DNA from: a virus
Lineage: Duplodnaviria > Caudoviricetes
Length of the DNA: 39,700 nt
Direction: 5' to 3' (one strand)
IMG/VR virus record: IMGVR_UViG_3300020045_004042
Location: 1-39,700 of that record
Position 1 is the stretch's first letter. Each line of letters begins with the position of its first letter. Position numbers and translations under genes: made by a program. Positions 4,272 to 35,797 of the stretch are shown here, piece after piece. The notes beneath the pieces were generated by a model. The model did no database searches. It was not told where the DNA came from and was given only the letters and a program-made list of their open reading frames with translations.

Positions 4272-4549
4272 AACAATATATCCAGAATAGTAAGGTTCAA
4301 AACACCAGTCGATTCAATTTCAGAAATTTTTATGTCTGCTGATTCGGCTGATAATGTAAAGAAAAGTTCTTTGATTTGTTGGGCGAATACATTCCCGCCA
4401 CCGGAAAGCACAATTTCGTTAATAACTTTCTTCTTTTGCTGCTCGCTCAATAGCGCGTAACATTGGTCTAAATCAGCGATAGAGAAGTCACGCCATTTCG
4501 ACTCAATTATCCTTGATTTCAGTTTGGTTTTATTTTTAAGCTGAGCCAT
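4268..4549 (-). CDS. Hypothetical tail-associated protein
   Basis: 93 aa, translationally coupled between fibre and spike. Confidence 0.7.
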   Translation of the reverse strand: MAQLKNKTKLKSRIIESKWRDFSIADLDQCYALLSEQQKKKVINEIVLSGGGNVFAQQIKELFFTLSAESADIKISEIESTGVLNLTILDILL

Positions 4550-8505: not shown

Positions 8506-9413
8506 CTGGCAAACCCTCTGTTGTACTTGTTCATAACAATTTGACCGGTCAATTTATTAATATTTCCAACCCTATCCGGTTGATTGTTCCGTATCATTTC
8601 AGCCAATTGGAGCTCTTTCTGCCTGGCAACTTCTTTTTCTTTACTTGGTTGGTAAGCTTTTGAAATATTGCTACGGTAAGCGTCATACTTATTGGCCGTT
8701 TTCGCTACATTCGCGGCTTTGCTTAATATCCCGGCAGGTGATCCACCCAATGAAGCTAAAGCAGGTGTTACCGCATTGGTGGCGGCTGCCGTACCCGCCG
8801 TGCCGAGTGTGCCAGCCCCAGAAGCCCCCGCAACACCCTGATAAGCGCCAGAAGCGAAAGCGGGCGTTATTGCGCCAGCCCCGACTAAACTACCTGTTGT
8901 TGTGCCTGCCGTTGCTCCTGCACCTGCTCCAATTGCGGTGGATTGAAACGCCGGTGTTATGGCGGCTGATCCCGCCGCTCCAAATCCCGCTGTTCCGCCA
9001 GCCGCGCCTGCACCGCCACTGGCTGCAGGCGCTCCTGCATTAGACGCGCCTGCCGCTGCTCCACCTGTTGCATAAGTTAATGCTGCAATCAATGCAATAT
9101 CGCCGCCATGATTGTTCCACCAGTCCTGATACGCTTTGTGTCTTTCCGGATCGACCTTGCTTAGCGTTTGCCGGATTGGATCGGCTTGGCCGAGTGTTTT
9201 GCTTTCAAAATTTAACGCCGGGGCAAGAACTCTATTCGCCCCAGTGATTAAATAATCCTCACCCTCATGTAATTTTTTCGATACTTCACCGATAACGGGT
9301 AATTTTTGCGTCAAATCTAACGCGCGAATCATTCCTACTACGGAGGATTTATTTTTATCCTGCCACCCTTCCCGGTAATCCGGTTGATTGCGCCAATCGC
9401 CGTAATCAATCAT
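8502..9413 (-). CDS. Gly/Ala-rich ejection (pilot-like) protein
   Basis: 303 aa with a long G/A/T hydrophobic tract; gene order. Confidence 0.6.
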   Translation of the reverse strand: MIDYGDWRNQPDYREGWQDKNKSSVVGMIRALDLTQKLPVIGEVSKKLHEGEDYLITGANRVLAPALNFESKTLGQADPIRQTLSKVDPERHKAYQDWWNNHGGDIALIAALTYATGGAAAGASNAGAPAASGGAGAAGGTAGFGAAGSAAITPAFQSTAIGAGAGATAGTTTGSLVGAGAITPAFASGAYQGVAGASGAGTLGTAGTAAATNAVTPALASLGGSPAGILSKAANVAKTANKYDAYRSNISKAYQPSKEKEVARQKELQLAEMIRNNQPDRVGNINKLTGQIVMNKYNRGFAR

Positions 9414-16939: not shown

Positions 16940-18914
16940 TTTCTTTCGACTCGCTATTTATTTTTGCAATAAATATCTTTGTTTCCGCGTCAATCCGTGC
17001 TTTCTGCAACTCTATTTCAGCGTTGGCGGCCAATTCCATTTGCTTCATTTGCATTTGAGCGTTGATTTTCTCTTGTTCAATTTGCATTTGCTGCGATAGC
17101 TTTACTTGCTCCATTTGCATTTGCTGCGCCATTCTTTCTTGCTCCATTTGCGCCTTACCCTGTTCCATTTGCTGTTGCTGCTGCATTTTTGCTTGCTCTA
17201 ACTGCATTTCAGCTTCAGGATTGCCGTCTTGTGGTGGTGGCTGTGGCGGTTGCATTTGCTGGATGTATTCTTCGATTTCGTCCCCAAACTGAAACCGGCG
17301 GACAATGGCCATCATAAGCGCCTTGGCCCCTTCAAATGGGAATGATCCGTCTTGAATCAGTGGCGTTATGCCTTGCAAATATTGACCCAGTGCCGTCATG
17401 ACCTCACTAATGTTTTTCTGATCTTCCGCCGCTTCGGGTGCTATGGTCGAATTTGTCTCAACGTCTATTTTGTACGATTTATTGAGATCGTTTTTCAGCA
17501 ATCCCAATATTTTGTCCCATGACGGAGCTTGTAATATCTGTTGAGATTGCGGGTGACTGGGCATTGATTGCGCTTGTGCGATTTGTTCAGTCGTTACATA
17601 TTGCAGGCCGGTCATATTGGCCCATGTTTGCTCGCTAAACTTAGTGGCGGCTACCTCAAGCATAATTCTAAGCATATCCCTAGCATACGTTTGGACTGCG
17701 CTTTGCATACGCTTTAACCGCATGGTTCCCCATTGCGATTTGATACCCTGCGCGGTTGCCGTTTCGTTGGCGTCGGTCGAGCCCCGGATAATATCGCTAA
17801 TGCCGGTCACTTCATAGATAACCTGTTTGCATTGTTCACGACTATTTAACAATTCTGTCAAAACCCGTGACATTTCAACGATAGGCATAAACCAGATCGC
17901 GTTCTGGAACCCTTTTTCCGCCGCTAATGCACTGGATTTGTCCGCCGGAATAAATTGATTATCGTCCCCACGCATGAGGTTTTCAATGTCACTACCTAGT
18001 TCGGCGTCATAGATCCCCTTCGCCTTTATGGAGTTCGACAGCCGTATAATACGCGTTGATAGCGTGTTCAGTTCCTTGGCTTGGTTTTCATACAGCAAAT
18101 AAGGCGCGATTACCGTTAAATCATGGGATTTTTCGATAAACTCAATCGGTTTAGGGATAGGATAAAACCCGGACAATTCCAACGGATCGTCGTCAACCTT
18201 CAGGAAATCGTCTTTGTTTTGCGGCGATAGGTAACGCACCTTCCGGTTATCTTTGTCCCATATCTGGTAAATGCAAGCTGTTTTAATCCCGCCCTGCTTT
18301 TCTTCGGCTTCTTTGGGCGCGTTTTCGTCTTCGGTATTGTCGTCATTTTTCAAAAACTTTAGCTTTTTCGCTATTTCTTCACCAAACAGCCGAACAGCTT
18401 CCTTTTTGTCGATATGCTCTTCGAACGCTATCCATGGCACTGTAGACCATTTTTTGCTATAGCCAACTAACATTCGGTCCCATACGATACTGTCAATACA
18501 GACCAATTCGGACTTTTTAACGTCGTCCTGAATGTCCGCGTCATATTTGATCCGGGTTATCCCACGGCCCGGCAATAGAGCGTCTAATGTCGCATTACGT
18601 AACCCTTCGTCAAATGTTTCATAGCCGTCAACGCCCGTGTCTAACAGGTATTCAAGCATTTTCTGAGCCGCTTTGGCCGCCTCATGGGTTAGCGGATCAA
18701 CAGCATGTTTGAATCGCGGCTTGACCGTTGGCCTTGGCACGGCGGAATAGAGCGCAGGCAGTAGCGTGTCAGTATTGGCGTACAAAATGTTAAACGGCAC
18801 CTCTTTGTCGCAGGTGTATATCTCGATAATCCGCTTGCCGTCTTCGCGAAATTCTTTATCCCGCTTGCGTGCGTCTTCAATTTCGCCTATCCAATACTCT
18901 ATATCATTGCTCAC
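16920..18914 (-). CDS. Portal protein
   Basis: 664 aa after terL; IYEVTGISDIIRG...ETATAQ motif and Q/M-rich C-terminal helix. Confidence 0.9.
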   Translation of the reverse strand: MSNDIEYWIGEIEDARKRDKEFREDGKRIIEIYTCDKEVPFNILYANTDTLLPALYSAVPRPTVKPRFKHAVDPLTHEAAKAAQKMLEYLLDTGVDGYETFDEGLRNATLDALLPGRGITRIKYDADIQDDVKKSELVCIDSIVWDRMLVGYSKKWSTVPWIAFEEHIDKKEAVRLFGEEIAKKLKFLKNDDNTEDENAPKEAEEKQGGIKTACIYQIWDKDNRKVRYLSPQNKDDFLKVDDDPLELSGFYPIPKPIEFIEKSHDLTVIAPYLLYENQAKELNTLSTRIIRLSNSIKAKGIYDAELGSDIENLMRGDDNQFIPADKSSALAAEKGFQNAIWFMPIVEMSRVLTELLNSREQCKQVIYEVTGISDIIRGSTDANETATAQGIKSQWGTMRLKRMQSAVQTYARDMLRIMLEVAATKFSEQTWANMTGLQYVTTEQIAQAQSMPSHPQSQQILQAPSWDKILGLLKNDLNKSYKIDVETNSTIAPEAAEDQKNISEVMTALGQYLQGITPLIQDGSFPFEGAKALMMAIVRRFQFGDEIEEYIQQMQPPQPPPQDGNPEAEMQLEQAKMQQQQQMEQGKAQMEQERMAQQMQMEQVKLSQQMQIEQEKINAQMQMKQMELAANAEIELQKARIDAETKIFIAKINSESKENANVPV

Positions 18915-22590: not shown

Positions 22591-22618
22591 TTGACATTTA
22601 TTTATTTTGGTATATACT
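22591..22618 (+). promoter_or_regulatory. Sigma70-type promoter
   Basis: TTGACA-16-TATACT with an upstream T-rich tract. Confidence 0.7.
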
Positions 22619-24006: not shown

Positions 24007-24230
24007 ATAAGGACCTTATTATTGAAGCGCTTGAGGCATTAATCGAAAAGAAAACGGCTGATATAGCGGAGATTTCTTTAGACAATAATTACCATTTCTC
24101 GGTATGGACTGCACTTATTGATTACATAGGCCAAAGAGGTGGCAAAAAAGAAATTAACGAAGCAACGGCCATGCTAAACGCTGACCATAAAAAACGACTG
24201 CAACGATATATAGATGAAAACGCTGCGTAA
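24003..24230 (+). CDS. Hypothetical protein
   Basis: 75 aa, GAGG RBS. Confidence 0.7.
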   Translation: MNKDLIIEALEALIEKKTADIAEISLDNNYHFSVWTALIDYIGQRGGKKEINEATAMLNADHKKRLQRYIDENAA

Positions 24231-24259
24231 TAACAGCGCATTAAATGACGGGGGTATAC
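24228..24259 (-). repeat. Decayed, internally deleted attC-like site
   Basis: TAATAAC..TTAAATGACGGGGGTATAC resembles the TTGAATGACGGGTTATAC arm of intact sites. Confidence 0.5.
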
Positions 24260-24263
24260 AATA

Positions 24264-24407
24264 ATGACTATTGATTTCAACGATTGGGAATATCACAAAA
24301 ACACACTAAAACCTATTTTCGGCAACCGAAAAAACTGGTATAGATTTTGTATTATCATGCAAAGATTGAGAATGAAAATAATGCTAGGTGTTACTATGTC
24401 GCGCTAG
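24264..24407 (+). CDS. Small hypothetical protein (47 aa)
   Basis: MTIDFNDWEYHKNTLKPIFG...; starts just after the decayed att arm. Confidence 0.5.
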   Translation: MTIDFNDWEYHKNTLKPIFGNRKNWYRFCIIMQRLRMKIMLGVTMSR

Positions 24408-24490
24408 TAAATCCTGTTAAACAATAGGTAGCGCGGCGCCCTTTTAAACGCCATGACAGAGGGCGTTAATACTCTGTTATCTCCTAACTT

Positions 24491-24517
24491 GCCCGGTGTT
24501 ATAACCGGGCTTTTTTT
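24491..24517 (+). terminator. Rho-independent terminator
   Basis: GCCCGGT-GTTATA-ACCGGGC followed by T7. Confidence 0.85.
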
Positions 24518-24523
24518 AACCCC

Positions 24524-24751
24524 ATGGACAGCGCAATGAGTGAGAAATTAACAAAAACGGCACTAAAAAACGAATTGACGCGGCGTATAGATAGGTTTGA
24601 ATCTATGTACCAATTCGGGGAAGGTAAGCCATGGCTTACACCCACGCCTGAAAACTCGCATTTATACGTAATGTATGGCCGATATTGCGCACTGAAAGAA
24701 ATGCGGTGGCAAATTAAAAACGGGTTGTTTATCCATGGGTTCAGTTTATAA
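24524..24751 (+). CDS. Hypothetical protein
   Basis: 75 aa; stop codon abuts a truncated att site. Confidence 0.65.
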   Translation: MDSAMSEKLTKTALKNELTRRIDRFESMYQFGEGKPWLTPTPENSHLYVMYGRYCALKEMRWQIKNGLFIHGFSL

Positions 24752-24770
24752 TCTAAACTAAGAGTTATAC
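24746..24770 (-). repeat. Truncated attC-like site
   Basis: AACTAAGAGTTATACA (24756-24771) is identical to 34347-34362 of an intact site. Confidence 0.65.
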
Positions 24771-24785
24771 ACGAGGTTTAAGGAA

Positions 24786-24965
24786 ATGCTTAGATATTTA
24801 ATGAAACATACGTTTAGAGATAAATACAACGGCTGTGAAGGTGTTGATTATTACACGATTGATGGCGATGCAGAACAAGTTGAGCATAGACTGAGAAGCG
24901 GAGGACGTGACGAAGAAAGCCACGAACGACACGAGCTTATAAATGTGGAAGTTTTAGATGTATAA
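24786..24965 (+). CDS. Cassette-borne hypothetical protein (59 aa)
   Basis: MLRYLMKHTFRDKYNGCEG...EVLDV*; flanked by GTTATAC and GTATAAC. Confidence 0.7.
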   Translation: MLRYLMKHTFRDKYNGCEGVDYYTIDGDAEQVEHRLRSGGRDEESHERHELINVEVLDV

Positions 24966-24995
24966 CGCGAAATAGACACCTAATCGGTGTATAAC
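24960..24995 (-). repeat. Array-terminal attI-like site, copy 1
   Basis: GTATAAC-GCGAAATAG-ACACCTAATCGGTGTATAA, 32/35 identical to 35715-35749. Confidence 0.6.
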
Positions 24996-25025
24996 AAATT
25001 ATTATGTTTTTTGTACTGGATCAAA

Positions 25026-25253
25026 ATGAATGGAATAGTAACCTGCGGACAATGCCGTCATTTTATCAGGCCTGAACCCAGATTCGAACCGAACAGCATG
25101 GGTTCGTGTGGGCTGTATGACGACTGGAGAGCCAAGTGGGGCGGTAAAACTATCCCGCTTCAGGCCGATAACCGGGTTAATGCTGAGCTGGGGAATAAGA
25201 TGTTTTTTACGGATATTGAGCGGTATTGTACAAAATTTCATAGCTTGATATAA
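25026..25253 (+). CDS. Cys-rich hypothetical protein
   Basis: VTCGQCRHF...GSC...RYC. Confidence 0.65.
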   Translation: MNGIVTCGQCRHFIRPEPRFEPNSMGSCGLYDDWRAKWGGKTIPLQADNRVNAELGNKMFFTDIERYCTKFHSLI

Positions 25254-25254
25254 T
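25226..25254 (+). promoter_or_regulatory. Sigma70 promoter of the replication operon
   Basis: TTGTAC-17-TATAAT with extended -10 TG. Confidence 0.75.
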
Positions 25255-25259
25255 TAAAC

Positions 25260-25360
25260 TGTTTTTGGTGTACCGAGTGCGAAACGTTAAACCAAAAACA
25301 TTAGTTTTTATATTAAACCCCGTAACTTCATTGTTCGCACCAATGAGGCCGGGGTTTTTT
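25260..25360 (+). ncRNA. Structured leader RNA: two hairpins with complementary loops, ending in a terminator
   Basis: Stem 25260-69/25291-300; loop GTGCGAA is complementary to loop TTCGCAC (25334-40) of the hairpin AAACCCCG...CGGGGTTTTTT. Confidence 0.65.
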
Positions 25361-25368
25361 ATTGGGAT

Positions 25369-25650
25369 TTGAAAATGAATAAGCAAGAATTAATTAGCAG
25401 GATAAATAAATCGAAATATTTAACAGCAAGTTGCTGGAGCACTTATCAGAAAGACGGAGATATCAATTGTATTTGGCTTCGCCCTAAAAATCATATGGGG
25501 CCATATTTTAATACATGGTGGGCCGATGATGAAAGATATGATCATACTCGAACATTATTCATAAAATGGCTAGATTCAGTTGGTTGGTGGATAGATATTG
25601 AAGATTACGGAACCTATATGCTAATCCATCAATGGAACAATAATGTATGA
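25369..25650 (+). CDS. Hypothetical Trp-rich protein
   Basis: About 91-93 aa, first gene after the leader, coupled to the initiator. Confidence 0.7.
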   Translation: MKMNKQELISRINKSKYLTASCWSTYQKDGDINCIWLRPKNHMGPYFNTWWADDERYDHTRTLFIKWLDSVGWWIDIEDYGTYMLIHQWNNNV

Positions 25651-26390
25651 GCGGTTGGATTTGCTTACATCGAGAAATAACAGATCATTGGATATGGACT
25701 GATTCAGAAAAATTAAAAGCGTGGGTTGACATGATTCTGCTAGCGAATCACGAAGATAAAAAGTTTCTTATAAAAGGCCAATTATTAGAATGCAAAAGAG
25801 GTCAGCTTGCATATAGTCAGGAATCTTTAGGTGAGCGCTGGAAATGGACTCGAGGAAAAGTTAGAAATTTTTTAAATATTTTAGAAAAAGACTCAATGAT
25901 TACGCACAAAAGCAACCATCTAACAACTATCATAACTATATGTAATTACAACAAATTCCAAGACAAACAACCAGATGAACAACCAGCTGAAAGCCAGCTG
26001 ACCGACATCTCAACGCCAGCTGAAAGCCAGCTGACCGACACAAACAACAATGTAAACAACTATAACAACTATAACAATGAAAACAATAAATATATATATA
26101 CTGAAAAATCTTCCCGAAAAGAAAAAAAACAAACAGAAATTGACTTACTGCATTCGGCCGGAATAGATGGAGAAATAGCAATTGATTTTATAACTCACAG
26201 AAAAGCTAAATCAGCCCCTATTACAAAAACGGTTATCGATGGTTATGCAAGAGAGGCTAAAAAAGCAAACATATCGCTAATCGATGCGGTACGGATTAGC
26301 ATTGAACGTGGATGGAGAGGGTTTAAAGCGGATTGGTTAAAAGAGGAAGCGCCAGAACCAAAAAAACCACATAGGGTTATATGGCAATGA
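25647..26390 (+). CDS. Replication initiator (lambda O-like)
   Basis: GWICLHREITDHWIW...KRGQ...ITICNYNKFQ N-domain, repeat linker, SIERGWRGF C-domain; upstream of the helicase. Confidence 0.85.
   Translation: MSGWICLHREITDHWIWTDSEKLKAWVDMILLANHEDKKFLIKGQLLECKRGQLAYSQESLGERWKWTRGKVRNFLNILEKDSMITHKSNHLTTIITICNYNKFQDKQPDEQPAESQLTDISTPAESQLTDTNNNVNNYNNYNNENNKYIYTEKSSRKEKKQTEIDLLHSAGIDGEIAIDFITHRKAKSAPITKTVIDGYAREAKKANISLIDAVRISIERGWRGFKADWLKEEAPEPKKPHRVIWQ
25971..26135 (+). repeat. Putative replication origin: iterons plus AT-rich tract
   Basis: 25-bp direct repeat 25983-26007/26016-26040; five CCAG(C/A)TGA units; A/T-rich run follows. Confidence 0.75.
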
Positions 26391-27664
26391 ACAGAGAAAC
26401 ACTGGAATTAATCATTGTCGGTATTTTGTTGGCATTCCCGAACGAAGCAACAAAAATTGATTTAGAGATCGAAGATTTTGCAACCCATCCTTGGAAGTTA
26501 GTTTTTCAGGCTATCCGGTCTGTTTTATCTGCCGGCCTGGAAGTCGATGTTTTTTCCGTAAAGGAAAAGGTTGGCGATATAGTTGATTTGTCTGATTTGG
26601 CTTACGCTCAAAAAGACGCCGCCTCACCTGCAAACATTGGCCACTATGCGGGACTGTTAAAAAAATACGGGCGGGAAGAAAGACTAAAGATTTTGTGCGT
26701 TAAAACATTGACTGCCATTGAAGACAAAAAAGATGTTGATAAAATCAAGGGCCGGTTATTGACAAGACTGTCTGAGATAGACGAAAGAGAAGAGCGGCTA
26801 GATTTAACAATGAAAGACCTTTCCAGGCTTGCTGTTGATTATATTGAAACTGCACAGGAGGCTAGAGACAACGGCAAAACAATAGGGATTCCAACGGGGA
26901 TTTATGAGGTAGATAAAAACTGCGGTGGCTTACATAACTCAAACCTTATCGTCGTAGGAGCAAGGCCTGGAATGGGAAAAACAGCTCTGGCATTGTCTTT
27001 GGCTGTCAATATGGGCAAAAAAGGCTTTAAAGTTGGGTTCGTCTCGACTGAAATGAGCGGAGTAGAAGTTGGCTTAAGGCTGATGTCGTTAATCTCAAAT
27101 GTTCCATCAGAAAAACTACGGAATGCTAACCTGTCAGAACAGGACTACAGCAAGTTAATGCTGGCATCAGGGAAATTAAAAGATTTGCCGATAAGGGTTT
27201 TTGACAGGCCATCCTGCACGCTTTCTGACATTATGGTTCAAGCAAGAGCTTGGATGCTAACCGGCGGTGTTGATGTCCTGATGGTTGATTATCTGCAAAG
27301 ACTGCAGTCAGACGTAAAACAAGATAGCCGCGTTCGTGAAGTTGGAAAATATGCTTCCGGATTAAAAACGGTGGCTAGAAGTATGAAAATCCCGGTTATA
27401 GCGCTATCGCAAATAAATCGATCCTCAACAAAAAGAGAGGAAAAAAGACCGACTATGTCCGATTTGCGGGATTCAGGAGAGATTGAGCAAGAAGCGGACA
27501 TGGTATGGCTGCTTCACCGGGAATCTGTCTATGACGATAACGCAAACAAAGAAGACGCCGAAATTATTATAGACAAAAACAGACATGGCCCGATTGCGAT
27601 GGTCAAAACATGCTGGAATCCTGAAATAATGAGATGGGGGAATAACGGTGATGATTATTATTAA
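26381..27664 (+). CDS. dnaB: Replicative DNA helicase, DnaB family
   Basis: GARPGMGKT, STEMS, VDYLQ, LSQINR, SDLRDSGEIEQEAD, KNRHG. Confidence 0.95.
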   Translation: MAMNRETLELIIVGILLAFPNEATKIDLEIEDFATHPWKLVFQAIRSVLSAGLEVDVFSVKEKVGDIVDLSDLAYAQKDAASPANIGHYAGLLKKYGREERLKILCVKTLTAIEDKKDVDKIKGRLLTRLSEIDEREERLDLTMKDLSRLAVDYIETAQEARDNGKTIGIPTGIYEVDKNCGGLHNSNLIVVGARPGMGKTALALSLAVNMGKKGFKVGFVSTEMSGVEVGLRLMSLISNVPSEKLRNANLSEQDYSKLMLASGKLKDLPIRVFDRPSCTLSDIMVQARAWMLTGGVDVLMVDYLQRLQSDVKQDSRVREVGKYASGLKTVARSMKIPVIALSQINRSSTKREEKRPTMSDLRDSGEIEQEADMVWLLHRESVYDDNANKEDAEIIIDKNRHGPIAMVKTCWNPEIMRWGNNGDDYY

Positions 27665-27788
27665 TTGTGCATAATAATATATCAGGAACCGCTTAAAAAT
27701 GACCATGGTTAAACGAAAAATAAAAAGCAATGGTATTTGATAGGTAAGTATAAAAACTAACGTACATAGCAAAAATAATTGGTGAAAA

Positions 27789-28244
27789 ATGACCACTCTA
27801 TTCTTAAGAAAAATCCACAACGTTTTTATCCCAGCCGACGCAATAACGCAGGCTGAAATGGAAACCATGCACGATTGCGAATATAAAGCGGAAGTGACGA
27901 AGCCTAGAAATTATTCATTCCTTAAAAAATTTTTTGCTTTGGTGAAAGTAGCGTTCGACGCATGGGAAGGGCCGGTAACCGAATATAAGGGTATGCCCGT
28001 AGAAAAGAATTTGGAGCGATTTAGGAAGGATTTACTCATTATGGCTGGGTATGGCTACCCTGTTGTAAATATCGCCGGGAAAGTCGCATTTGAGGCCAAA
28101 TCAATAGCATTCGGCAGTATGGATGAAGTGGAGTTTGAAGAATTGTACAGCAAGGTGATCGACGTGATTCTGGCCAATGTGCTGAATCACTACACGCGAG
28201 ACGATTTAGATGTGATGGTCAACAATATATTGAGGTTTAGCTGA
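27789..28244 (+). CDS. DUF1367-like nin-region protein
   Basis: KPRN..F.KKFFAL...FRKDLLIMAGY...AKSIAFGSMDEVEFEELY. Confidence 0.75.
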   Translation: MTTLFLRKIHNVFIPADAITQAEMETMHDCEYKAEVTKPRNYSFLKKFFALVKVAFDAWEGPVTEYKGMPVEKNLERFRKDLLIMAGYGYPVVNIAGKVAFEAKSIAFGSMDEVEFEELYSKVIDVILANVLNHYTRDDLDVMVNNILRFS

Positions 28245-28245
28245 T

Positions 28246-28428
28246 ATGAAATATGCAGTGATGGTAAAAGAGTTTAGGCAAAAAATGATATGCCACCACG
28301 GTGAAATATGGGTAAAGGACAAGGATTATACAAACTACGTCAATATAGACGAACGCGGCGTCTGGGATACCAAAGAGGAAGCCGAACAGGCGAAATTATA
28401 TGATGATGAAATAGTGGTGGGGGTTTAG
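28246..28428 (+). CDS. Hypothetical protein
   Basis: 60 aa; a decayed paralogue lies at 28585-28759. Confidence 0.7.
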   Translation: MKYAVMVKEFRQKMICHHGEIWVKDKDYTNYVNIDERGVWDTKEEAEQAKLYDDEIVVGV

Positions 28429-28674
28429 ATGATAAAAATATCAAGAAAGGAAATGACCCTGACAGAATATCTACGCACCTACAATAAATGGCGAAGAGGG
28501 GAATATGAAAATTATGAAATTCCTGATCCTAAAGAAGTTGGTGAGGCTATTGACGAAGTAATAGCGTTATTGGAGCAGCGCCGATATGCAGTAATGGTGG
28601 ATGATTATGTTCAAGACGAAATGTGCAGCCCTTCTGAATCCTGGGTAAAATTGGGAGTATTCGCATTACGTTAA
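28429..28674 (+). CDS. Hypothetical protein fused to the start of a duplicated gene
   Basis: LRTYNKWRRG...PDPKEVGEAID followed by YAVMV...WVK. Confidence 0.65.
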   Translation: MIKISRKEMTLTEYLRTYNKWRRGEYENYEIPDPKEVGEAIDEVIALLEQRRYAVMVDDYVQDEMCSPSESWVKLGVFALR

Positions 28675-28759
28675 TATAAACGAGCGTGGAGTTTGGGACG
28701 CCAAGAAGGCGGCGAGATAACATATACGTTTTGATTATGAAATAGTGGTGGAGCTATAA
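28585..28759 (+). pseudogene. Degenerate duplicate of 28246-28428
   Basis: YAVMV..WVK, then after a frameshift WEYSHYVNINERGVWDAKKAAR*HIRFDYEIVVEL. Confidence 0.7.
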
Positions 28760-28760
28760 A

Positions 28761-29069
28761 ATGCAAAAACGGAAACCTTACCGAAACAAAAAAATACTGG
28801 ATCATGCAAAAGGGCAGGAATGTCAAATCAGGCTTCCGGGTTGCTTGCACAATACCGAAACAACAGTAGCTGCTCATATACATGCCTATGAATTCGGGCA
28901 TGGTATGGGCCAGAAAGCGGATGATTTTGCCATAGCCTTCGTCTGTAGCAAGTGCCATTTGATACTAGACGGCGCGCATAATTTTGATGTCGACTGGCTT
29001 GAAGGCATGTTCCACAAAGCGAACACTCGAACAATTGGCATTTTGTTCAGGGACGGCATTATAAAATGA
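28761..29069 (+). CDS. DUF1364/YbcO-like zinc-binding putative nuclease
   Basis: AKGQECQIRLPGC...ETTVAAH...GMGQKADD...CSKCH. Confidence 0.8.
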   Translation: MQKRKPYRNKKILDHAKGQECQIRLPGCLHNTETTVAAHIHAYEFGHGMGQKADDFAIAFVCSKCHLILDGAHNFDVDWLEGMFHKANTRTIGILFRDGIIK

Positions 29070-29091
29070 AGCACAAAAAATAAAATACCTC

Positions 29092-29120
29092 TTGACATTG
29101 CTATAAATTTATAATACTAT
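29092..29120 (+). promoter_or_regulatory. Sigma70 promoter of the recombination/cassette operon
   Basis: TTGACA-17-TACTAT with an A-rich UP element. Confidence 0.75.
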
Positions 29121-29149
29121 AGCCACAAGCTATTAAACAGGAGGGGAAA

Positions 29150-29737
29150 ATGAAAAGCGAAAGCATAGCCGAGCTGGCTAAAGCGCTAAGCAAAGCGCAA
29201 GGCGATTTTGATCATGCAAAAAAAGATTCAGCAGGCCCATTTGCAAAAAGCTTTTATGCTGACCTTGCAAATGTTATTGATGCGGCAAAAAAACCGCTAG
29301 CAGATAACGGACTTGCGGTAAGTCAACTTATTGTTGCCGATGAAAACGGTAACGTAAATTTGGAAACGATATTAATGCACGCTTCCGGGGAATGGATTAG
29401 TGGTACTTATCCGATTCGCCCCGTTAAAACTGATCCTCAATCCATGGGTTCAGCGATAACTTACGCAAGGCGCTATTCTTTTTCGGCTATTACCGGCATA
29501 GCGGCTGATGATGATGACGGAAATGAAGCCAGCAAGCCAAAACCTGATAGACAAAGAGTTGATAAGCCAATTGAGAAATCCTACTGGCCGGAATCTAAAT
29601 TTAACGAAAAAAAGGAAGAATGGAAAGAAAAAGTGCTATCAGGCGAACGAACTGTAGAGCAATTATTGACTGTTATGCAAGTGCGTCATTTATTTACTGA
29701 GTCACAAAAGGGAGAGATTCAATCATGGGCACAATAG
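29150..29737 (+). CDS. erf: ERF-family ssDNA annealing protein
   Basis: YADL...GSAITYARRYSFSAITGIAADDDDG signature. Confidence 0.92.
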   Translation: MKSESIAELAKALSKAQGDFDHAKKDSAGPFAKSFYADLANVIDAAKKPLADNGLAVSQLIVADENGNVNLETILMHASGEWISGTYPIRPVKTDPQSMGSAITYARRYSFSAITGIAADDDDGNEASKPKPDRQRVDKPIEKSYWPESKFNEKKEEWKEKVLSGERTVEQLLTVMQVRHLFTESQKGEIQSWAQ

Positions 29738-30894
29738 CTCAAGACCATAAATTGATGGTATCGGCGTCGAATTGTCATAGGATAATGACGTGCCTGGATA
29801 AAGATTGCCTTCCGCCAGGCGCGATATCATATATCAGCGATATGTTTAATCTGTCTGATGATGATTTCAAAAATACCTATATGTCGGACGACATGATAAA
29901 CGGTGTTGAAAAAGAGCCGGAAGCACTTGACGCATTATCCGAATATTTGTGGCTTGATATACTATTCACTGGACACACACAAAAAAGGCTTTATGCCGGT
30001 AAAGATTATTATGATTTTTTATCCGCTCTACCTGACGGGATTATATGGTCACTTGATGATTTAATTTATAGTGTCGAAGTTAAATGTTTAAATGAAAAAA
30101 ACCACCAATTTGTTTGTGAGAATATTACAGACGGTGATCGGCTTAAAAAACATGACTATAAAAAATATTGCCAAGTACAGACGCAAATGCTTTGTGTAGA
30201 AAAATCATATATACAAGATTCTGTAGGAATCATTGCCTTTTACAATGAAATTTGTGAACCCCCCCTGCACATTGTATGGGTTGATCCCGATCAAGAATGG
30301 CGCGATAGACTTCATTCCCGGCTGGGCTTAGCTAAAAAACTCTACCTGGAAATACAGGGCGAACCACAAAAACAGGTAATCCCATTAGCGCACGATACCG
30401 AAATAATAACGCCGGATATGGTTAGCTCACTGCTTAGTGATCCAAAGTTTTTAATGGAAATGGTTTATGATCATTTTGGCGTATCGATAGTTGACGGGCA
30501 TTATACTGGCGGCGATATAATTGATTGCAGTACCAAGAAGGGCCGTGACCAGGCTATCAAGTTACGATCCAAAATAACCAAGGTCAGGACTGGCGCTGTT
30601 TCTATATCAAAAAAGCTGGTAGAAGAGTATAAGTTAAAATGCAAACAAGAGCTTGAATTCCGCAAAACCATTGAGGCCGACTGTAAAGCACTCAGTGATT
30701 ATCTATGCCAAACCCTGAACGCATGGGAATCTGGGCAAAAGCAAAATGTTGAAGTAAAAAAAGAAATTAAAGAAGCAGTCAAGGAAGATAACGTAAAAAA
30801 CGTACTAGACCCGATAAAAAATATGTTCGAAGCCGGTAAAATTGGCATAGCCGAGGCTTTAATGATGGCCTATCAAGCAGGATTGGACACATGA
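29725..30894 (+). CDS. YqaJ/lambda-exonuclease-like nuclease with long C-terminal coiled-coil extension
   Basis: SAS..GVEKEPEA..ALPDG..VEVKC..QVQTQM; adjacent to ERF. Confidence 0.8.
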   Translation: MGTIAQDHKLMVSASNCHRIMTCLDKDCLPPGAISYISDMFNLSDDDFKNTYMSDDMINGVEKEPEALDALSEYLWLDILFTGHTQKRLYAGKDYYDFLSALPDGIIWSLDDLIYSVEVKCLNEKNHQFVCENITDGDRLKKHDYKKYCQVQTQMLCVEKSYIQDSVGIIAFYNEICEPPLHIVWVDPDQEWRDRLHSRLGLAKKLYLEIQGEPQKQVIPLAHDTEIITPDMVSSLLSDPKFLMEMVYDHFGVSIVDGHYTGGDIIDCSTKKGRDQAIKLRSKITKVRTGAVSISKKLVEEYKLKCKQELEFRKTIEADCKALSDYLCQTLNAWESGQKQNVEVKKEIKEAVKEDNVKNVLDPIKNMFEAGKIGIAEALMMAYQAGLDT

Positions 30895-31049
30895 AAACAG
30901 ATAAATCGAAATCGTTACACATAAGCGAAAAAACACATAATCGGCTAAAGTTGTACAGTGTTCACGCTGGTAAAACTATCGGAAAGTTGGTCGATGAGTT
31001 TATTGTTTTTTGCCTTGATCAACTTGATATTGAGGATAAGAAAAAATAA
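30891..31049 (+). CDS. Ribbon-helix-helix DNA-binding protein (52 aa)
   Basis: KSLHISEKTHNRLKLYSVHAGKTIGKLVDEFI; ATGA-coupled. Confidence 0.65.
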   Translation: MKTDKSKSLHISEKTHNRLKLYSVHAGKTIGKLVDEFIVFCLDQLDIEDKKK

Positions 31050-31054
31050 ATGAT

Positions 31055-31072
31055 TTGAATGACGGGTTATAC
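31055..31072 (-). repeat. attC-like half site (right arm only)
   Basis: 31055-31074 is identical to 34027-34046. Confidence 0.7.
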
Positions 31073-31077
31073 ATATT

Positions 31078-31311
31078 ATGACTATTTATGAAAAACACAT
31101 TTCTCACATTGAGGCTGTTAACAATGCCAAAACCGTCGAAGAACATGCGGCATTAGATTTGTACCTAAGCGCATGGTTAACTGGTGTCAGGGATGCTGGC
31201 GGAGTACTAAGCCATATTGCGGCAGACATGTTTTATTTAGATCAAGGAATTGACAGGCCAATGTGTGGCGGAATATGGCTGGATTGGAAGCCAGAAAAAA
31301 CAGGTGTATAA
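31078..31311 (+). CDS. Cassette ORF, hypothetical
   Basis: 77 aa; GTTATAC before, stop inside GTATAAC. Confidence 0.8.
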   Translation: MTIYEKHISHIEAVNNAKTVEEHAALDLYLSAWLTGVRDAGGVLSHIAADMFYLDQGIDRPMCGGIWLDWKPEKTGV

Positions 31312-31394
31312 CGCAGAGCTAACCGGGCGCGGCCCGGAAAGCTAAACAATGAAACCGTACTATAACCGCGCTCCGGTTGAGCGCACTGTTAGGC
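31306..31394 (-). repeat. attC-like site (89 bp)
   Basis: GTATAAC GCAGA GCTAACC GGGCGCGG...CCGCGC t CC GGTT g AGC GCACT GTTAGGC. Confidence 0.85.
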
Positions 31395-31406
31395 TTGGAG
31401 AGTGAA

Positions 31407-31607
31407 ATGTATATACCAGAACCTGGAACTATTACGCATGGGAAATATAGAGAGCTTAGCGAATCAATGGGTAATCTCAATGTTGGGGAATGTCTTACTG
31501 TACCAATTTCTTTAAGAAATGGTAAAGGGATAATATCTAAGCGACTAGGTATAAAAGTTAAAACAAGAAGAAATGGCGATAAATTAGATATTTATAGAGT
31601 TTCATAA
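31407..31607 (+). CDS. Cassette ORF, small basic protein (66 aa)
   Basis: ATG 31407 with GGAG RBS; stop inside TCATAAC. Confidence 0.75.
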   Translation: MYIPEPGTITHGKYRELSESMGNLNVGECLTVPISLRNGKGIISKRLGIKVKTRRNGDKLDIYRVS

Positions 31608-31674
31608 CGCAGAATTAACGCGCGCCCGCGAGGACGCTGAAAATTGCTGGAAGAAATATAACACGGCGTTAGGC
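31602..31674 (-). repeat. Deleted/hybrid attC-like site including a 19-bp minimal site (31656-31674)
   Basis: Left arm nearly identical to the 35431 site; then ATATAAC-ACGGC-GTTAGGC. Confidence 0.65.
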
Positions 31675-31680
31675 GTGGAA

Positions 31681-31875
31681 ATGAAAACAGAATTAAAAGT
31701 CACTTGTAAGAAGTGCGGCGGCGCGATGGCGCCCGGCAAAGCAATGCAGCAAACCTGGACAGGATCGCTAGACTTTCCTGATGAAAAGCATTACGTGACC
31801 ATTTCGCCTGGCGGTAGCGGGAAGCTCATTGAATGCATGAAATGTAAAGGGTGCGGATGGAGCATGACTTTATAG
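31681..31875 (+). CDS. Cassette ORF, zinc-ribbon protein
   Basis: CKKCGG...CKGCGWS. Confidence 0.75.
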   Translation: MKTELKVTCKKCGGAMAPGKAMQQTWTGSLDFPDEKHYVTISPGGSGKLIECMKCKGCGWSMTL

Positions 31876-31901
31876 GCGTACAACATACCAAATTGTAACC
31901 A

Positions 31902-32351
31902 ATGACGATATTATCGATTGATCCCGGAATGAAATCAGGTGCCGCCATTTTCGACAACGGGCAATGTATATTTTTCAAAACATTGCGAGGGCCAGTCGAA
32001 ACAATAGATTTTATTCGTGCGCAAAGCCCTGCTTTAGTTATATGCGAGGATAGTCGCCTTCAATCACATGTTTTTACCGCGCCAAGCCTCAACGCTCAGG
32101 CCAGATTGAAAGTAGCGAGGAATATAGGAATGGTAGATATGTGCTGTTATCTGATACAGGCCGCGTGCGAAAGATTGCAGATCGGATACCTGGCCGTATC
32201 GCCAAAAGGGAAAGGGGGAAAGCTTGATTCAAAAAGCCTTCAAAAATTAACGGGTATCACATTATCAACTAACCAGCATGAGCGAGATGCTATCGTTTTA
32301 GGCTGGCCGTATCGTAATGAAAAAATGGTGGAACATGATCGAATTTGTTGA
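31902..32351 (+). CDS. RuvC-like (RNase H fold) Holliday junction resolvase
   Basis: ILSIDPG..SG, VICED and NQHERDA acidic motifs. Confidence 0.75.
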   Translation: MTILSIDPGMKSGAAIFDNGQCIFFKTLRGPVETIDFIRAQSPALVICEDSRLQSHVFTAPSLNAQARLKVARNIGMVDMCCYLIQAACERLQIGYLAVSPKGKGGKLDSKSLQKLTGITLSTNQHERDAIVLGWPYRNEKMVEHDRIC

Positions 32352-32442
32352 GGCTTTAAGCGCATTATCGTGGCCTGGCGCTTTTGTTTTGGGGTGCATG
32401 TTTTTAGCGATTACCGTTATTGGCTATACATATTTTAAGTGA
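32335..32442 (+). CDS. Small membrane protein (35 aa)
   Basis: MIEFVEALSALSWPGAFVLGCMFLAITVIGYTYFK. Confidence 0.5.
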   Translation: MIEFVEALSALSWPGAFVLGCMFLAITVIGYTYFK

Positions 32443-32756
32443 TGATGCAAACTTCAAAATCAGTTATTCGTTGGATGTGCCAATCTTGTGATTGGATAGG
32501 CGATGATGCAGAATTGCTGCGCGCACCAAGCCCGTTTGACGCGGAAGATACCATTGTCGGATGCCCTAAGTGCAAGGCTGTAGACGATTTTAAAAGCGCC
32601 TGTGATGAACCAGGCTGCGGACAAGACGCGACATGTGGATTTCCAGCGCCTGGCGGATACCGGCGCACATGCGGAAAGCACATGCAAAATCAATGGCCCG
32701 GTGAAGTGTGCAGAGGTCATAACGCAAAGCTACCCGGGCGCGGCGCGAATGATTGA
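32442..32756 (+). CDS. Cys-rich zinc-binding protein; C-terminus reads into an att arm
   Basis: CQSC..CPKC..CDEPGC..TCGKH; ends HNAKLPGRGAND. Confidence 0.75.
   Translation: MMQTSKSVIRWMCQSCDWIGDDAELLRAPSPFDAEDTIVGCPKCKAVDDFKSACDEPGCGQDATCGFPAPGGYRRTCGKHMQNQWPGEVCRGHNAKLPGRGAND
32717..32745 (-). repeat. attC-like half site (left arm only)
   Basis: TCATAAC GCAAA GCTACCC GGGCGCGG, a variant of the 31306/35131 arm. Confidence 0.65.
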
Positions 32757-32870
32757 ATAATGAGTTCTATGTCATGTGCGAGCAGAAATGCACCCGTAAT
32801 GGCCGGACACCGGGAAATTGGATACTTGGGATCGGCTGAGAGTATGCCGACAAATACCCGGCCACATGAC

Positions 32871-32959
32871 GCCTAACGCAATAATTAACGTGTCCGCACG
32901 ATGCGATCTGAACAAAACCTCTGAGATTTCCCGGCTCAGCGCTGAATAATGGGTTATAC
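32871..32959 (-). repeat. attC-like site, degenerate stem (89 bp)
   Basis: GCCTAAC GCAATAATTAACG...GCTGAAT AATGG GTTATAC. Confidence 0.7.
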
Positions 32960-32987
32960 ATTTAAATTAAAATAGGATAAACTGAAA

Positions 32988-33293
32988 ATGAAGATGCTGA
33001 CAATTGAAATGCCGGACGGAAGCAAATGGGGCGTGCCTGTGGAGGTTATTGCACGGAGCCGCGCCGCGCACTACGCGCACGAATTCGACGGCGATGTGGA
33101 GCGCTCGATGGCTGAGGACACGATGCCGCTGTTTAATAGCGATCACTACGAAATTGAAGACTGGGCGGCCAACAACATGAACTGGAGCGGCGTGTCGGAG
33201 CAAGCGAAGAAGCTGCAAGACGCGCCAGCGCCTGACTTTCAAGAGGCATGGATAAATGGCAAAAAGGCGGTAATCGAACAGGATGATTTATGA
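32988..33293 (+). CDS. Cassette ORF, phage hypothetical (acidic)
   Basis: MPDGSKWGVPVEVIA...EIEDWAANNMNW. Confidence 0.8.
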   Translation: MKMLTIEMPDGSKWGVPVEVIARSRAAHYAHEFDGDVERSMAEDTMPLFNSDHYEIEDWAANNMNWSGVSEQAKKLQDAPAPDFQEAWINGKKAVIEQDDL

Positions 33294-33427
33294 AAAAGAA
33301 AAGACCGAGACAGCGAAAACTTAGAAAATGTGAGCGAGGGATTAAAACAAAATCTTTCAATCGCGGATGCCGATATGTAATGACAAATAACGGTCTTCTG
33401 CCTCGAATGTGGGCTACTGGTAATTGA
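33290..33427 (+). CDS. Small basic ORF (45 aa), second ORF of the same cassette
   Basis: MKKKRPRQRKLRKC...; ATGA-coupled. Confidence 0.45.
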   Translation: MKKKRPRQRKLRKCERGIKTKSFNRGCRYVMTNNGLLPRMWATGN

Positions 33428-33428
33428 T

Positions 33429-33515
33429 GTATAACGCAGAATTAACGCGCGCCCACGACGAACTTTAAACAAAGCCGCGATGCTTCTGGGCGTCGCGTTG
33501 AATGACGGGTTATGC
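33429..33515 (-). repeat. attC-like site (87 bp)
   Basis: GTATAAC GCAGA ATTAACG CGCGCCCA...TGGGCG t CG CGTT g AAT GACGG GTTATGC. Confidence 0.85.
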
Positions 33516-33536
33516 GTGAAAACTTTGGAGATCATA

Positions 33537-33713
33537 ATGGGTGATACATGCGACATGGTAATCATTGAAACAGCCGACTTTGATATTTTGTGGGAATGCT
33601 CTGAATGCAAGACAGAACACAAGGCGACGAAGAAGTTCGAGAAGAATAAGGTATGTCCGAAGTGCGGGAAAGAGATTGCGAATTGGATTGGCTTGGATGA
33701 ATATGACTTATAA
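33537..33713 (+). CDS. Cassette ORF, zinc-ribbon protein (58 aa)
   Basis: GGAG RBS; WECSEC...CPKCG; stop inside TTATAAC. Confidence 0.75.
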   Translation: MGDTCDMVIIETADFDILWECSECKTEHKATKKFEKNKVCPKCGKEIANWIGLDEYDL

Positions 33714-33796
33714 CGCAGAATTAACCAGACCGCCCGCTGGATTTAAAACAACACCACGACTCGCGGCGGCGGGTCTGGTTGAATGACGGGTTATAC
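33708..33796 (-). repeat. attC-like site (89 bp)
   Basis: TTATAAC GCAGA ATTAACC AGACC...GGTCT GGTT g AAT GACGG GTTATAC. Confidence 0.85.
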
Positions 33797-33797
33797 G

Positions 33798-34034
33798 ATG
33801 TTTCATATTAGAAAAAACAAATATGGCAGGGCTTTTTGTCAGCCTAAAAGAGGTTTATCCATCTTTTCTATGTACTTTCGAGGATGGAGATCTTTCGGCT
33901 TGGGCGGATGGTGGAGCAAACCAAGCAAAAACCAGGGGCTAATTGAAAAAAACATGACGCATAACGCAGAATTAAGTCGCGCCGGTAGTGCGCCAAACGA
34001 AACCGCTGGCGTTAACAGCGTCGGCCTTGAATGA
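33798..34034 (+). CDS. Cassette ORF, basic; reads through the next att site
   Basis: MFHIRKNKYG...HNAELSRAG...GLE*; weak RBS. Confidence 0.5.
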   Translation: MFHIRKNKYGRAFCQPKRGLSIFSMYFRGWRSFGLGGWWSKPSKNQGLIEKNMTHNAELSRAGSAPNETAGVNSVGLE

Positions 34035-34044
34035 CGGGTTATAC
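33959..34044 (-). repeat. attC-like site (86 bp)
   Basis: GCATAAC GCAGA ATTAAG...CTT g AAT GACGG GTTATAC. Confidence 0.8.
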
Positions 34045-34272
34045 ATGACAGAACAAATCAGCCATTGGCAATTGCAAATAAGCGATCCGCAACGGTCATA
34101 TAAAAGCACAAAAGATATTCATGTGCTTGCCCCAGAAATGATAGATGCGGTTAAAAAAGTTGGCGAACTATATCCAAATGCTAGGATTTTTAATTGCATC
34201 CACAAAGGCACGTTTGAAGGCGACTTGTATGTGCGTCCTAAAAACGTTATTCGTGAGCAAGATAATGTATAA
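34045..34272 (+). CDS. Cassette ORF, hypothetical (75 aa)
   Basis: ATG immediately after GTTATAC; stop inside GTATAAC. Confidence 0.7.
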   Translation: MTEQISHWQLQISDPQRSYKSTKDIHVLAPEMIDAVKKVGELYPNARIFNCIHKGTFEGDLYVRPKNVIREQDNV

Positions 34273-34361
34273 CGCCGTGTTGATCGGCACGCCGCCGCAC
34301 GGAACTTTAACCGCGCAAATGCGCTAAATGGCGGCTTGTCCGCTTGAACTAAGAGTTATAC
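34267..34361 (-). repeat. attC-like site (95 bp)
   Basis: GTATAAC GCCGT GTTGATCGG..GCCGCC...GGCGGC..CCGCTT g AAC TAAGA GTTATAC. Confidence 0.8.
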
Positions 34362-34365
34362 AACA

Positions 34366-35136
34366 ATGATAAAGCTACTGCACGGTGATTGTAGGAAGTT
34401 TTTGTTTGATGGCACGATTGACCCGGATAGTATTGACTTAACCGTGACCTCTCCGCCTTATGACAATTTTAGAACTTACAACAATTCTTCCTCCTGGGGA
34501 TGGGCTGAATTTAGTGCGGTTGCTGCCGGATTGTGGAGAGTAACAAAACCCGGCGGCGTTGTGGTTTGGGTGGTTGGTGATGCCACCATAAAAGGTAGTG
34601 AGACCGGAACCAGCTTTGAACAGGCTTTAGCCTTTAAGAAAATGGGCTTTAACTTGCATGATACTATGATATATGAAAAAGGAGTAGTAGCTTTCCCTGA
34701 GAGCGTGAGATACAACAATAAAATGGAATATATGTACGTTTTTAGTAAGGGGAAACCAATCACCTTTAACGGTATAAAAGATCATAAAAATGTGTCGGCT
34801 GGTCGTAAAGTTACAGGCTATGACCGGACAAAAGAAGGAGGGCAGAAAATAAGATCGGGTGCTGGAAATATTTACCCTGATAATTCATTAAGGGGCAACG
34901 TCTGGAAAATGTGGAACCAAAGCCGAGGCGAACATACCCGACATCCTGCTACATTTCCTGAACAATTAGCACAAGATCACATAGTCACATGGAGTAACGA
35001 AGGCGACACTGTGTTTGATCCTTTTGTTGGCAGTGGCACAACTGGAAAGATGGCAAAACAACTAAATCGCAAATTCATAGGCGTTGAAATAGACACAGAG
35101 TATTTCAAAATAGCCAGTGAGCGAATTGGTGTATAA
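34366..35136 (+). CDS. Orphan beta-class amino DNA methyltransferase (N4-C/N6-A), cassette-borne
   Basis: TSPPY catalytic motif N-terminal; HPATFP and DPFVGSGTT SAM motif C-terminal. Confidence 0.92.
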   Translation: MIKLLHGDCRKFLFDGTIDPDSIDLTVTSPPYDNFRTYNNSSSWGWAEFSAVAAGLWRVTKPGGVVVWVVGDATIKGSETGTSFEQALAFKKMGFNLHDTMIYEKGVVAFPESVRYNNKMEYMYVFSKGKPITFNGIKDHKNVSAGRKVTGYDRTKEGGQKIRSGAGNIYPDNSLRGNVWKMWNQSRGEHTRHPATFPEQLAQDHIVTWSNEGDTVFDPFVGSGTTGKMAKQLNRKFIGVEIDTEYFKIASERIGV

Positions 35137-35223
35137 CGCAGAGCTAACCGGGCGCGGCCCGAATGGAGTTTGAACATGACAAAGAACCAAATGGCCGCGC
35201 TCCGGTTGAGCGTTGAGTTAGAC
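35131..35223 (-). repeat. attC-like site (93 bp)
   Basis: Core arms identical to the 31306 site; different loop and right spacer; ends GTTAGAC. Confidence 0.85.
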
Positions 35224-35236
35224 GTAGGATATTTTA

Positions 35237-35470
35237 ATGAGACAAGAAATTGAAGACCCACGCGAATGGCGCGTAAGCATGAGCGGCTTTAGCATCAAGA
35301 CCGGATGGGGCGACGAGAAAAAGATAATAGCCTCCTATCCTGGCAAGGCTCAGCCCCTAGATGGTGATAAATTTCAGGAATGGCTAGAGACCGCAGAACA
35401 TATCTGCCAATTGCACAATGCGACTTTGACGCCTAACGCAGAATTAACGCGCGTCCGTGAGGACGCTTAA
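35237..35470 (+). CDS. Cassette ORF; C-terminus reads into the att arm
   Basis: AGGA RBS; AEHICQLHN..PNAELTRVREDA. Confidence 0.75.
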   Translation: MRQEIEDPREWRVSMSGFSIKTGWGDEKKIIASYPGKAQPLDGDKFQEWLETAEHICQLHNATLTPNAELTRVREDA

Positions 35471-35517
35471 CAATGCCGCGATGCTTCCAGGCGTCGCGGT
35501 TGAATGACCTGTTATAC
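35431..35517 (-). repeat. attC-like site (87 bp)
   Basis: GCCTAAC GCAGA ATTAACGCGCG...GCG t CGCGGTT g AAT GACCT GTTATAC. Confidence 0.85.
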
Positions 35518-35531
35518 ATTTTAGGTAATTT

Positions 35532-35720
35532 ATGAACGCTATTGAAGAATTAAAGTTGGCAAGCGAAGAAGTTGCAAGGCAGAGAAAGTTGATTGAGTTA
35601 GAAATGGAAGAAAAAGGAAATAAAGGAAAATTATGGCAAAACGGCATGTGTAAAGCATGGCCTGATTACGAGAAGGCAATATCTAGGCAAGCGCAATTAA
35701 GAGAATTGCACGGTGTATAA
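35532..35720 (+). CDS. Cassette ORF, hypothetical (62 aa)
   Basis: AGGT RBS; stop inside GTATAAC. Confidence 0.75.
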   Translation: MNAIEELKLASEEVARQRKLIELEMEEKGNKGKLWQNGMCKAWPDYEKAISRQAQLRELHGV

Positions 35721-35750
35721 CGCTTAATATACACCTAATCGGTGTATAAT
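35715..35750 (-). repeat. Array-terminal attI-like site, copy 2
   Basis: GTATAAC-GCTTAATAT-ACACCTAATCGGTGTATAA; contains the TATACACC-5-GGTGTATA inverted repeat. Confidence 0.6.
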
Positions 35751-35773: not shown

Positions 35774-35797
35774 GTTCCCGAAACGAATTTCGGGAAC
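35774..35797. terminator. Perfect hairpin at the convergence of early and late arms
   Basis: GTTCCCGAAA-CGAA-TTTCGGGAAC; no adjacent U-run, so terminator function is uncertain. Confidence 0.4.

Follow-up and report, generated by a model that had tools for sequence, protein, structure and literature searches.

The window analysed here is the whole stretch of 39,700 nucleotides (positions 1 to 39,700) of the IMG/VR virus record IMGVR_UViG_3300020045_004042, a complete phage genome of 39.7 kb with 121-bp terminal repeats. The subject of this report is a 35-bp motif that occurs twice in this genome and that a first-pass annotation had described as a candidate attI-like entry site for integron cassettes. 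The minus strand of the phage carries the structural genes, and the plus strand carries small early genes as well as genes for an O-like initiator, DnaB, NinB, Erf-like and RecE-like proteins (29150-30894), a resolvase and a DNA methyltransferase; iterons are located at 25983-26040. A search of the whole phage genome with PF00589 gave no match to a tyrosine recombinase, and a PHROGs scan found none either.

The two copies of the motif, site A (24960-24994) and site B (35715-35749), are identical at 32 of 35 positions and separated by 10,755 bp, in line with the earlier description, and their flanks are unrelated. The three mismatches concern two bases of the spacer between the R and L boxes and one base of the L box. 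Both sites open, in the register that had been noted, with the GTATAAC of the last cassette, which contains the stop codon of the preceding open reading frame (ORF; 24786-24965 and 35532-35720). A third copy with at most three mismatches is absent from the window, and 100 shuffles gave no copy at all; the whole record holds two copies in total, with none inside the arrays. Read on the minus strand, copy A of the putative attI (24960-24995) consists of an R box (24960-24966), a spacer, an L box (24972-24978), an inverted repeat and a first direct repeat (DR1, 24986-24995), and copy B (35715-35750) has its R box at 35715-35721, its L box at 35727-35733 and DR1 at 35741-35750. The R box carries the core GTTATAC, which agrees with GTTRRRY, and is accompanied by a degenerate inverted L box; crossover is predicted between 24966 and 24965 in A and between 35721 and 35720 in B. 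A second copy of the core 29 bp from the first, as had been annotated, is exact in site A, whereas site B retains it at only 6 of 7 positions. An Rfam search gave no match.

Site B borders array 2, which has eight full-length attC between 31306 and 35517, five of which pass a strict scan that produced 0 false calls in five random 40-kb sequences. The polarity of these attC is the standard one on the minus strand, with the extra base in the first L box, which places site B at the head of the array as originally proposed; the genes of the array are all on the plus strand. Cassette 1 (35437-35720, plus strand, 284 bp) contains an ORF (35532-35720) that runs towards attI B, and its attC (35431-35517, on the minus strand like all attC listed below) has both R and L boxes and no end-to-end fold in the predicted minimum-energy structure. 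The attC at 35131-35223, 34267-34361, 33708-33796 and 33429-33515 pass the strict scan and fold end to end, those at 33959-34044 and 32871-32959 have mismatched arms, and the last full-length one is found at 31306-31394. Half attC with the R'/L' side only are present at 32717-32760 and 31602-31640, and one with R''/L'' only marks the far end of the array (31045-31072). The half sites at 31602 and 32717 match left arms of other attC at 25-27 of 29 bases, and four of the eight attC have poorly pairing arms, which together with the half sites gives the row a hybrid-like look. Cassette 3 (864 bp) carries an N6/N4 DNA methyltransferase gene (34366-35136, plus strand), the only part of the phage that is matched in GenBank phages. 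With at least two attC within a few kb and no integrase, array 2 is a cluster of attC sites lacking integron integrases (CALIN), and array 1 is not.

Array 1, next to site A, is decayed: it comprises one cassette-like unit and two collapsed remnants. The unit (24771-24965, plus strand) has an ORF of 59 aa (24786-24965) that runs towards attI A and has its stop codon in the R box. The first remnant (24746-24770, minus strand) has kept R''/L'', with an R'' equal to the R box of attI A at 4/4 variable bases, and the second lies at 24228-24259 (minus strand). The statement that both arrays end in the motif stands for array 2, with its eight full-length attC, and needs qualifying for array 1, in which no intact attC is present. 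Visual inspection showed what looks like the decayed end of an attC, in plus-strand (normal) polarity, at 24414-24488, after an ORF at 24264-24407, and a terminator-like hairpin (24491-24510) follows it.

Relatives of the motif are found beside bacterial integrase genes. A search with the attC type of the window returned four viral loci, of which L004 and L006 end in a related motif, while the inspected parts of L003 and L005 contain no related attI. A pattern built from the L004/L006 motif gave matches in more phages and in chromosome-like contigs, and a genome-wide scan with a degenerate pattern gave a single match, on a phage contig binned in a Methylobacter metagenome-assembled genome. In the family of this Methylobacter genome, 104 of 201 genomes encode an IntI above the TIGR02249 cut-off, and at 26 of the 30 best intI loci a related site that points away from intI lies 147-201 nt upstream of the intI match. 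Where longer stretches were fetched at host intI loci, canonical attC arrays come after this site. Eleven of the 26 intI-adjacent sites belong to a subtype very close to the window motif, and 43 of the 346 family genomes contain this subtype, with 75 occurrences in total, as compared to 0 in the reversed control. The host sites mostly have two direct repeats, at +24 and +48/58, and the GGTGTATA element of the window motif is a direct repeat of host attI. The array region of the window is matched by 156 of the 346 family genomes, the attC at 31306-31394 being up to ~90% identical to sites in these genomes, and the host of the phage is likely a methanotroph of this family, as far as sequence relationships can indicate. 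Judging from the loci L090 and L091, the site may also occur outside this family.

A profile of the 11 subtype sites, which were picked after the window motif had been seen, scores A at 26.6 and B at 23.0 bits, ranks 1 and 2 in the window, with the next match at 5.5. Among 200 random windows a top score of 23.7 was reached once, and the second-best score was never above 10.6; the profile gave no match above 12 bits in a further 126 phage loci, 46 of them terminase-related and 80 O-related. The nearest subtype match to site B is L290, a phage-like contig of G234. Several host-family genomes (G096:C1 with four sites, G088:C1, G035, G169, G234 and others; loci L012, L014, L017, L018 and L020) contain more than one attI copy, and many of the extra host copies have no full intI beside them, some being accompanied by intI stumps, with normally oriented cassettes.

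The attI of sedentary chromosomal integrons of the Methylobacter family and attI1 have in common with the phage sites a GTT core, a degenerate L box, a direct repeat about 30 bp away, a leading position in an attC array and, as far as the site family is concerned, a sequence change exactly at the core. The GenBank record of attI1 has the same layout of R box, L box and direct repeats, and the two-repeat host sites resemble it. The distance between R and L box in the phage sites is that of the majority of intI-adjacent host sites and one base shorter than in attI1, and their DR1 lies at 29 bp, compared with 32 bp in attI1. Unlike these known sites, the phage copies have no intI nearby or anywhere in the genome, lack the second direct repeat (DR2) of the host sites and the promoter region, are present twice in one replicon and are faced by cassette genes that elsewhere point away from attI. 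What the phage sites have kept is the R box, the L box and the first direct repeat. Their loop measures 5 nt instead of the 6 nt found in 74 of 75 host sites, and this shorter loop recurs in the phages L089 and L092.

In other phages with the same attI family, cassette content changes precisely at the core. With the core as the exact starting point, the prophages L015 and L023 share 99.4% identity along 1561 bp, whereas before it the agreement is at chance level (12-16 of 60), and five host pairs, which were chosen for similarity, break at the core too. The insertion polymorphism at G|TT that was to be expected of an entry site thus exists for the site family; a relative of the phage itself by which it could be seen at A or B was not found. 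Closure of cassettes fits the same crossover point. The R'' of each window cassette agrees better with the leading than with the trailing R box (24 versus 20 of 28 bases), which is what the insertion of circles at G|TT would produce, and for 12 units of other phages, some with uncertain attC calls, the corresponding numbers are 41 and 29 of 48; in the units next to A and B, R'' fits their own attI at 4/4. L007 and L008 share a cassette gene (46% identity) that does not hold the same rank in both. In L004/L008, L007 and L089, related prophage integrases have different attI subtypes directly upstream of the integrase gene.

The orientation of cassette genes differs between phages and hosts. At 11 other phage or prophage sites (L007, L008, L009, L010, L023, L089-L093 and L290), a gene on the phage-type strand ends at most about 30 nt from the R box in 11 of 11 cases, although some also have antisense shadow frames of similar length. 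Of the seven viral contigs to which only the motif had led, five carry an attC with this polarity no more than ~420 nt away. At 30 host sites of the subtype, the first ORF is normally oriented in 22, inverted in none and without a call in eight. When 55 host-array units were scored, 22 were normal, two inverted and 31 unclassed, the scanner having missed three inverted units of L049 that were found by eye. These three (L049:438-1356, G066:C62) are the attI-proximal cassettes of an intI-linked array, followed by a normal one, and one of them matches a phage nucleotide pyrophosphohydrolase family. The first cassette of an intI-linked array in G037:C1 (L094:209-463) is also inverted and encodes a Tad2-like (Thoeris anti-defence 2-like) protein (PF11195, E 7e-26); its attC is 82% like the window attC at 33429, a site that also shares 82-83% identity with attC belonging to inverted cassettes of the host integrons L034 and L039. 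In the intI-linked array of L095, the second cassette is an inverted unit with a helix-turn-helix gene. Phage and host probably draw on a common cassette pool, since host integrons hold a few of these backwards-built cassettes; the direction of cassette flow between phage and host is one that we infer. In L259 (KX853513, Virus Rctr41k), a gene annotated as xerD (4495-5493) is 46% identical to the IntI of L049, and minus-polarity attC (8230-8360 and 9120-9249) are found between plus-strand genes beside methyltransferases.

As to transcription, the best sigma-70-type promoter match (11/12; 22591-22618, plus strand) is upstream of array 1, and another (10/12; 29092-29120, plus strand) is upstream of the Erf/exonuclease genes and array 2, in a promoter scan that overall was at chance level (40 vs 44). 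A hairpin at 35774-35797, directly after attI B and between converging gene blocks, is likely a terminator. Since the cassette genes face attI, they would be read from these phage early promoters at the opposite end, so that a new cassette would land last in the row and leave the expression of earlier genes undisturbed. The earlier suggestion of entry at the promoter-distal end fits the two promoter matches; at site A, the operon continues past the site, and the hairpin at 24491-24510 is positioned upstream of it.

Taken together, these observations argue that the 35-bp motif is a shortened attI of the methanotroph family, present twice in an integrase-less phage, and that host IntI likely inserts attC circles at G|TT during infection; we put the probability of this explanation at roughly 80%. 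The attI-like identity originally suggested has gained in strength through the intI-adjacent homologues, the layout resembling that of attI1 and the polymorphism that related prophages and hosts show at the core. Judged by their sequence, the sites are real attI that resemble integron entry points. They do not make the phage a complete integron, since no intI is linked to them, and the cassette genes run towards attI instead of being read from a promoter at the attI end. The host would supply IntI in trans, and the enzyme would bind the double-stranded phage site and insert a cassette via the folded bottom strand of attC, which here is the plus strand. The hairpin after B would close the transcription unit. 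Site B, with eight full-length attC, may be the more recently used entry point, and site A would serve the decayed row.

A number of points weigh against this explanation. A mixed profile of both subtypes gives A and B only 15.7 and 13.1 bits, scores that 1 and 3 of 15 random windows reached, nhmmer E-values for the sites range from 0.01 to 2.1, and the good scores of the 11-site profile carry the bias of a subtype chosen with the motif in view. The phage variant itself, allowing three mismatches, is present in 0 of 346 family genomes, and an exact or near-exact 35-bp motif occurs in none of the viral contigs searched. Relatives sought by the gene to the right of site B were not found; those sought by terminase (46 loci) have no attI or attC in the flanks fetched, and those sought by the O protein (the best 80 of 157) have no attI, so that none of the searches by motif, terminase, O protein or site-B neighbour gave a relative with an empty or differently filled site. 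The single sequencing run listed contains nothing but attC-like pieces and a portion of the methyltransferase. No window cassette gene recurs as a cassette among the loci examined, the closure difference within the window alone is small, array 1 has only collapsed attC remnants and end-to-end folds are predicted for only four of the eight full-length attC of array 2. A promoter scan that as a whole is at chance level and the terminator-like hairpin between the promoter at 22591 and the site-A cassette are further unfavourable points. The missing DR2 and the 5-nt loop suggest that the phage sites may be weakened or dead.

The last point leads to the alternative that survives best, namely that the sites are attI by descent and now unused, attI and cassettes having been acquired once and the rows since then changing by Erf-driven homologous recombination between attC repeats. 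The shortened structure of the sites, the collapsed and half attC, the four of eight attC whose arms fail to pair end to end, as expected of hybrids, and the Erf-like and RecE-like genes at 29150-30894 all suit such a history. Nevertheless, the two copies are still identical at 32 of 35 positions though their flanks are unrelated, the 5-nt loop is shared with L089 and L092, and the polymorphism between L015 and L023 sets in precisely at the core, a place without any attC repeat on which recombination could act; we therefore consider disuse unlikely. The homologous route and insertion by IntI can coexist, and recombination between attC repeats by the phage Erf system may add to the shuffling.

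Less probable is that the palindromic part of the motif serves a phage or host regulator as its operator, or else represents a miniature decayed attC. The inverted repeat is the best-kept part and folds weakly (-4 to -6 kcal/mol), but it has no R'' partner box, the same element occurs beside bacterial intI with polymorphism at the core, and no strong promoter match overlaps it. Both versions were rejected on the basis of the lacking R'' partner, the intI-adjacent counterparts and the promoter scan. A regulatory side role is possible, the host site being located in the promoter region of intI and of the cassettes (Pc).

The weakest alternative, offered with the first-pass annotation, is a Xer-like (dif-like) half site used by host XerC/D, for which site A shows an 11-bp arm, 7 bp and an arm starting with TTATG in succession (24984-25012), an arrangement that we take to resemble dif. 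Simple sites of tyrosine recombinases have 6-8 bp between the arms (PMC2095811), but TTATG is 9 bp away at site B, the second arm is absent after the motif in eight other aligned sites and the supposed first arm, GGTGTATA, is the host attI direct repeat, so that with neither spacing nor conservation fixed this reading was rejected as highly improbable.

If the phage sites are functional attI, a wider scenario can be envisaged, which we regard as tentative and slightly short of an even chance. Unrelated methanotroph phages would each have taken a host attI and would run a mirror-image integron on borrowed IntI. A phage-specific pool of backwards cassettes, including counter-defence genes such as the methyltransferase found here and the Tad2-like gene in a host array, would move both ways between phages and host integrons, and its genes would be expressed in the phage while lying silent in the host. 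Sites A and B are direct repeats that bracket the iterons, the O and DnaB genes, the recombination genes and array 2. A crossover between the two copies would excise 10,755 bp and, in this scenario, could release the 10.7-kb block with origin, O, DnaB and array 2 as a replicating circle. Elsewhere in the genome, 33-bp coding repeats are present at 17034-17205, near the end of the portal gene.

Earlier work has already described attC arrays in phages and an attI in one prophage (Qi 2023, PMC9892861), and what appears new here, as judged against the part of that paper available, is an integrase-less phage with host attI and inverted cassettes; a literature search that left subscription journals mostly outside its reach found no report of such phages. 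The accessible text of Qi et al. (2023; PMC9892861) reports that phage attC recombine with attI1 and that a Shewanella-type attI heads a CALIN in the cryptic prophage M16-3. The phage CALINs treated there are likewise attC arrays without integrase and with DNA methyltransferase cassettes. Different from the present phage, the cryptic prophage with the M16-3 attI also holds a complete integron, and the same text regards the arrays of phages as cargo that is passed from one bacterium to another; it contains no description of genes inverted relative to attC polarity or of phage attI as entry points for phage genes. In another paper (PMC2095811), attI is described as being recognised only by the cognate integrase. 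With the site and candidate cognate integrases, such as the IntI of L049 or L041, named here, the proposed insertion is directly testable.

Integrons are usually seen as bacterial tools. According to a preprint (bioRxiv 10.1101/2024.07.02.601686), chromosomal integron arrays are reportedly stores of anti-phage defences. If the attI sites of the phage work, phages, too, would receive accessory and counter-defence genes by way of the host enzyme, and phage genes could be stored in host arrays. Cassette orientation may then serve as a simple marker for phage-born cassettes, and arrays of this kind would be a place to seek anti-defence proteins.

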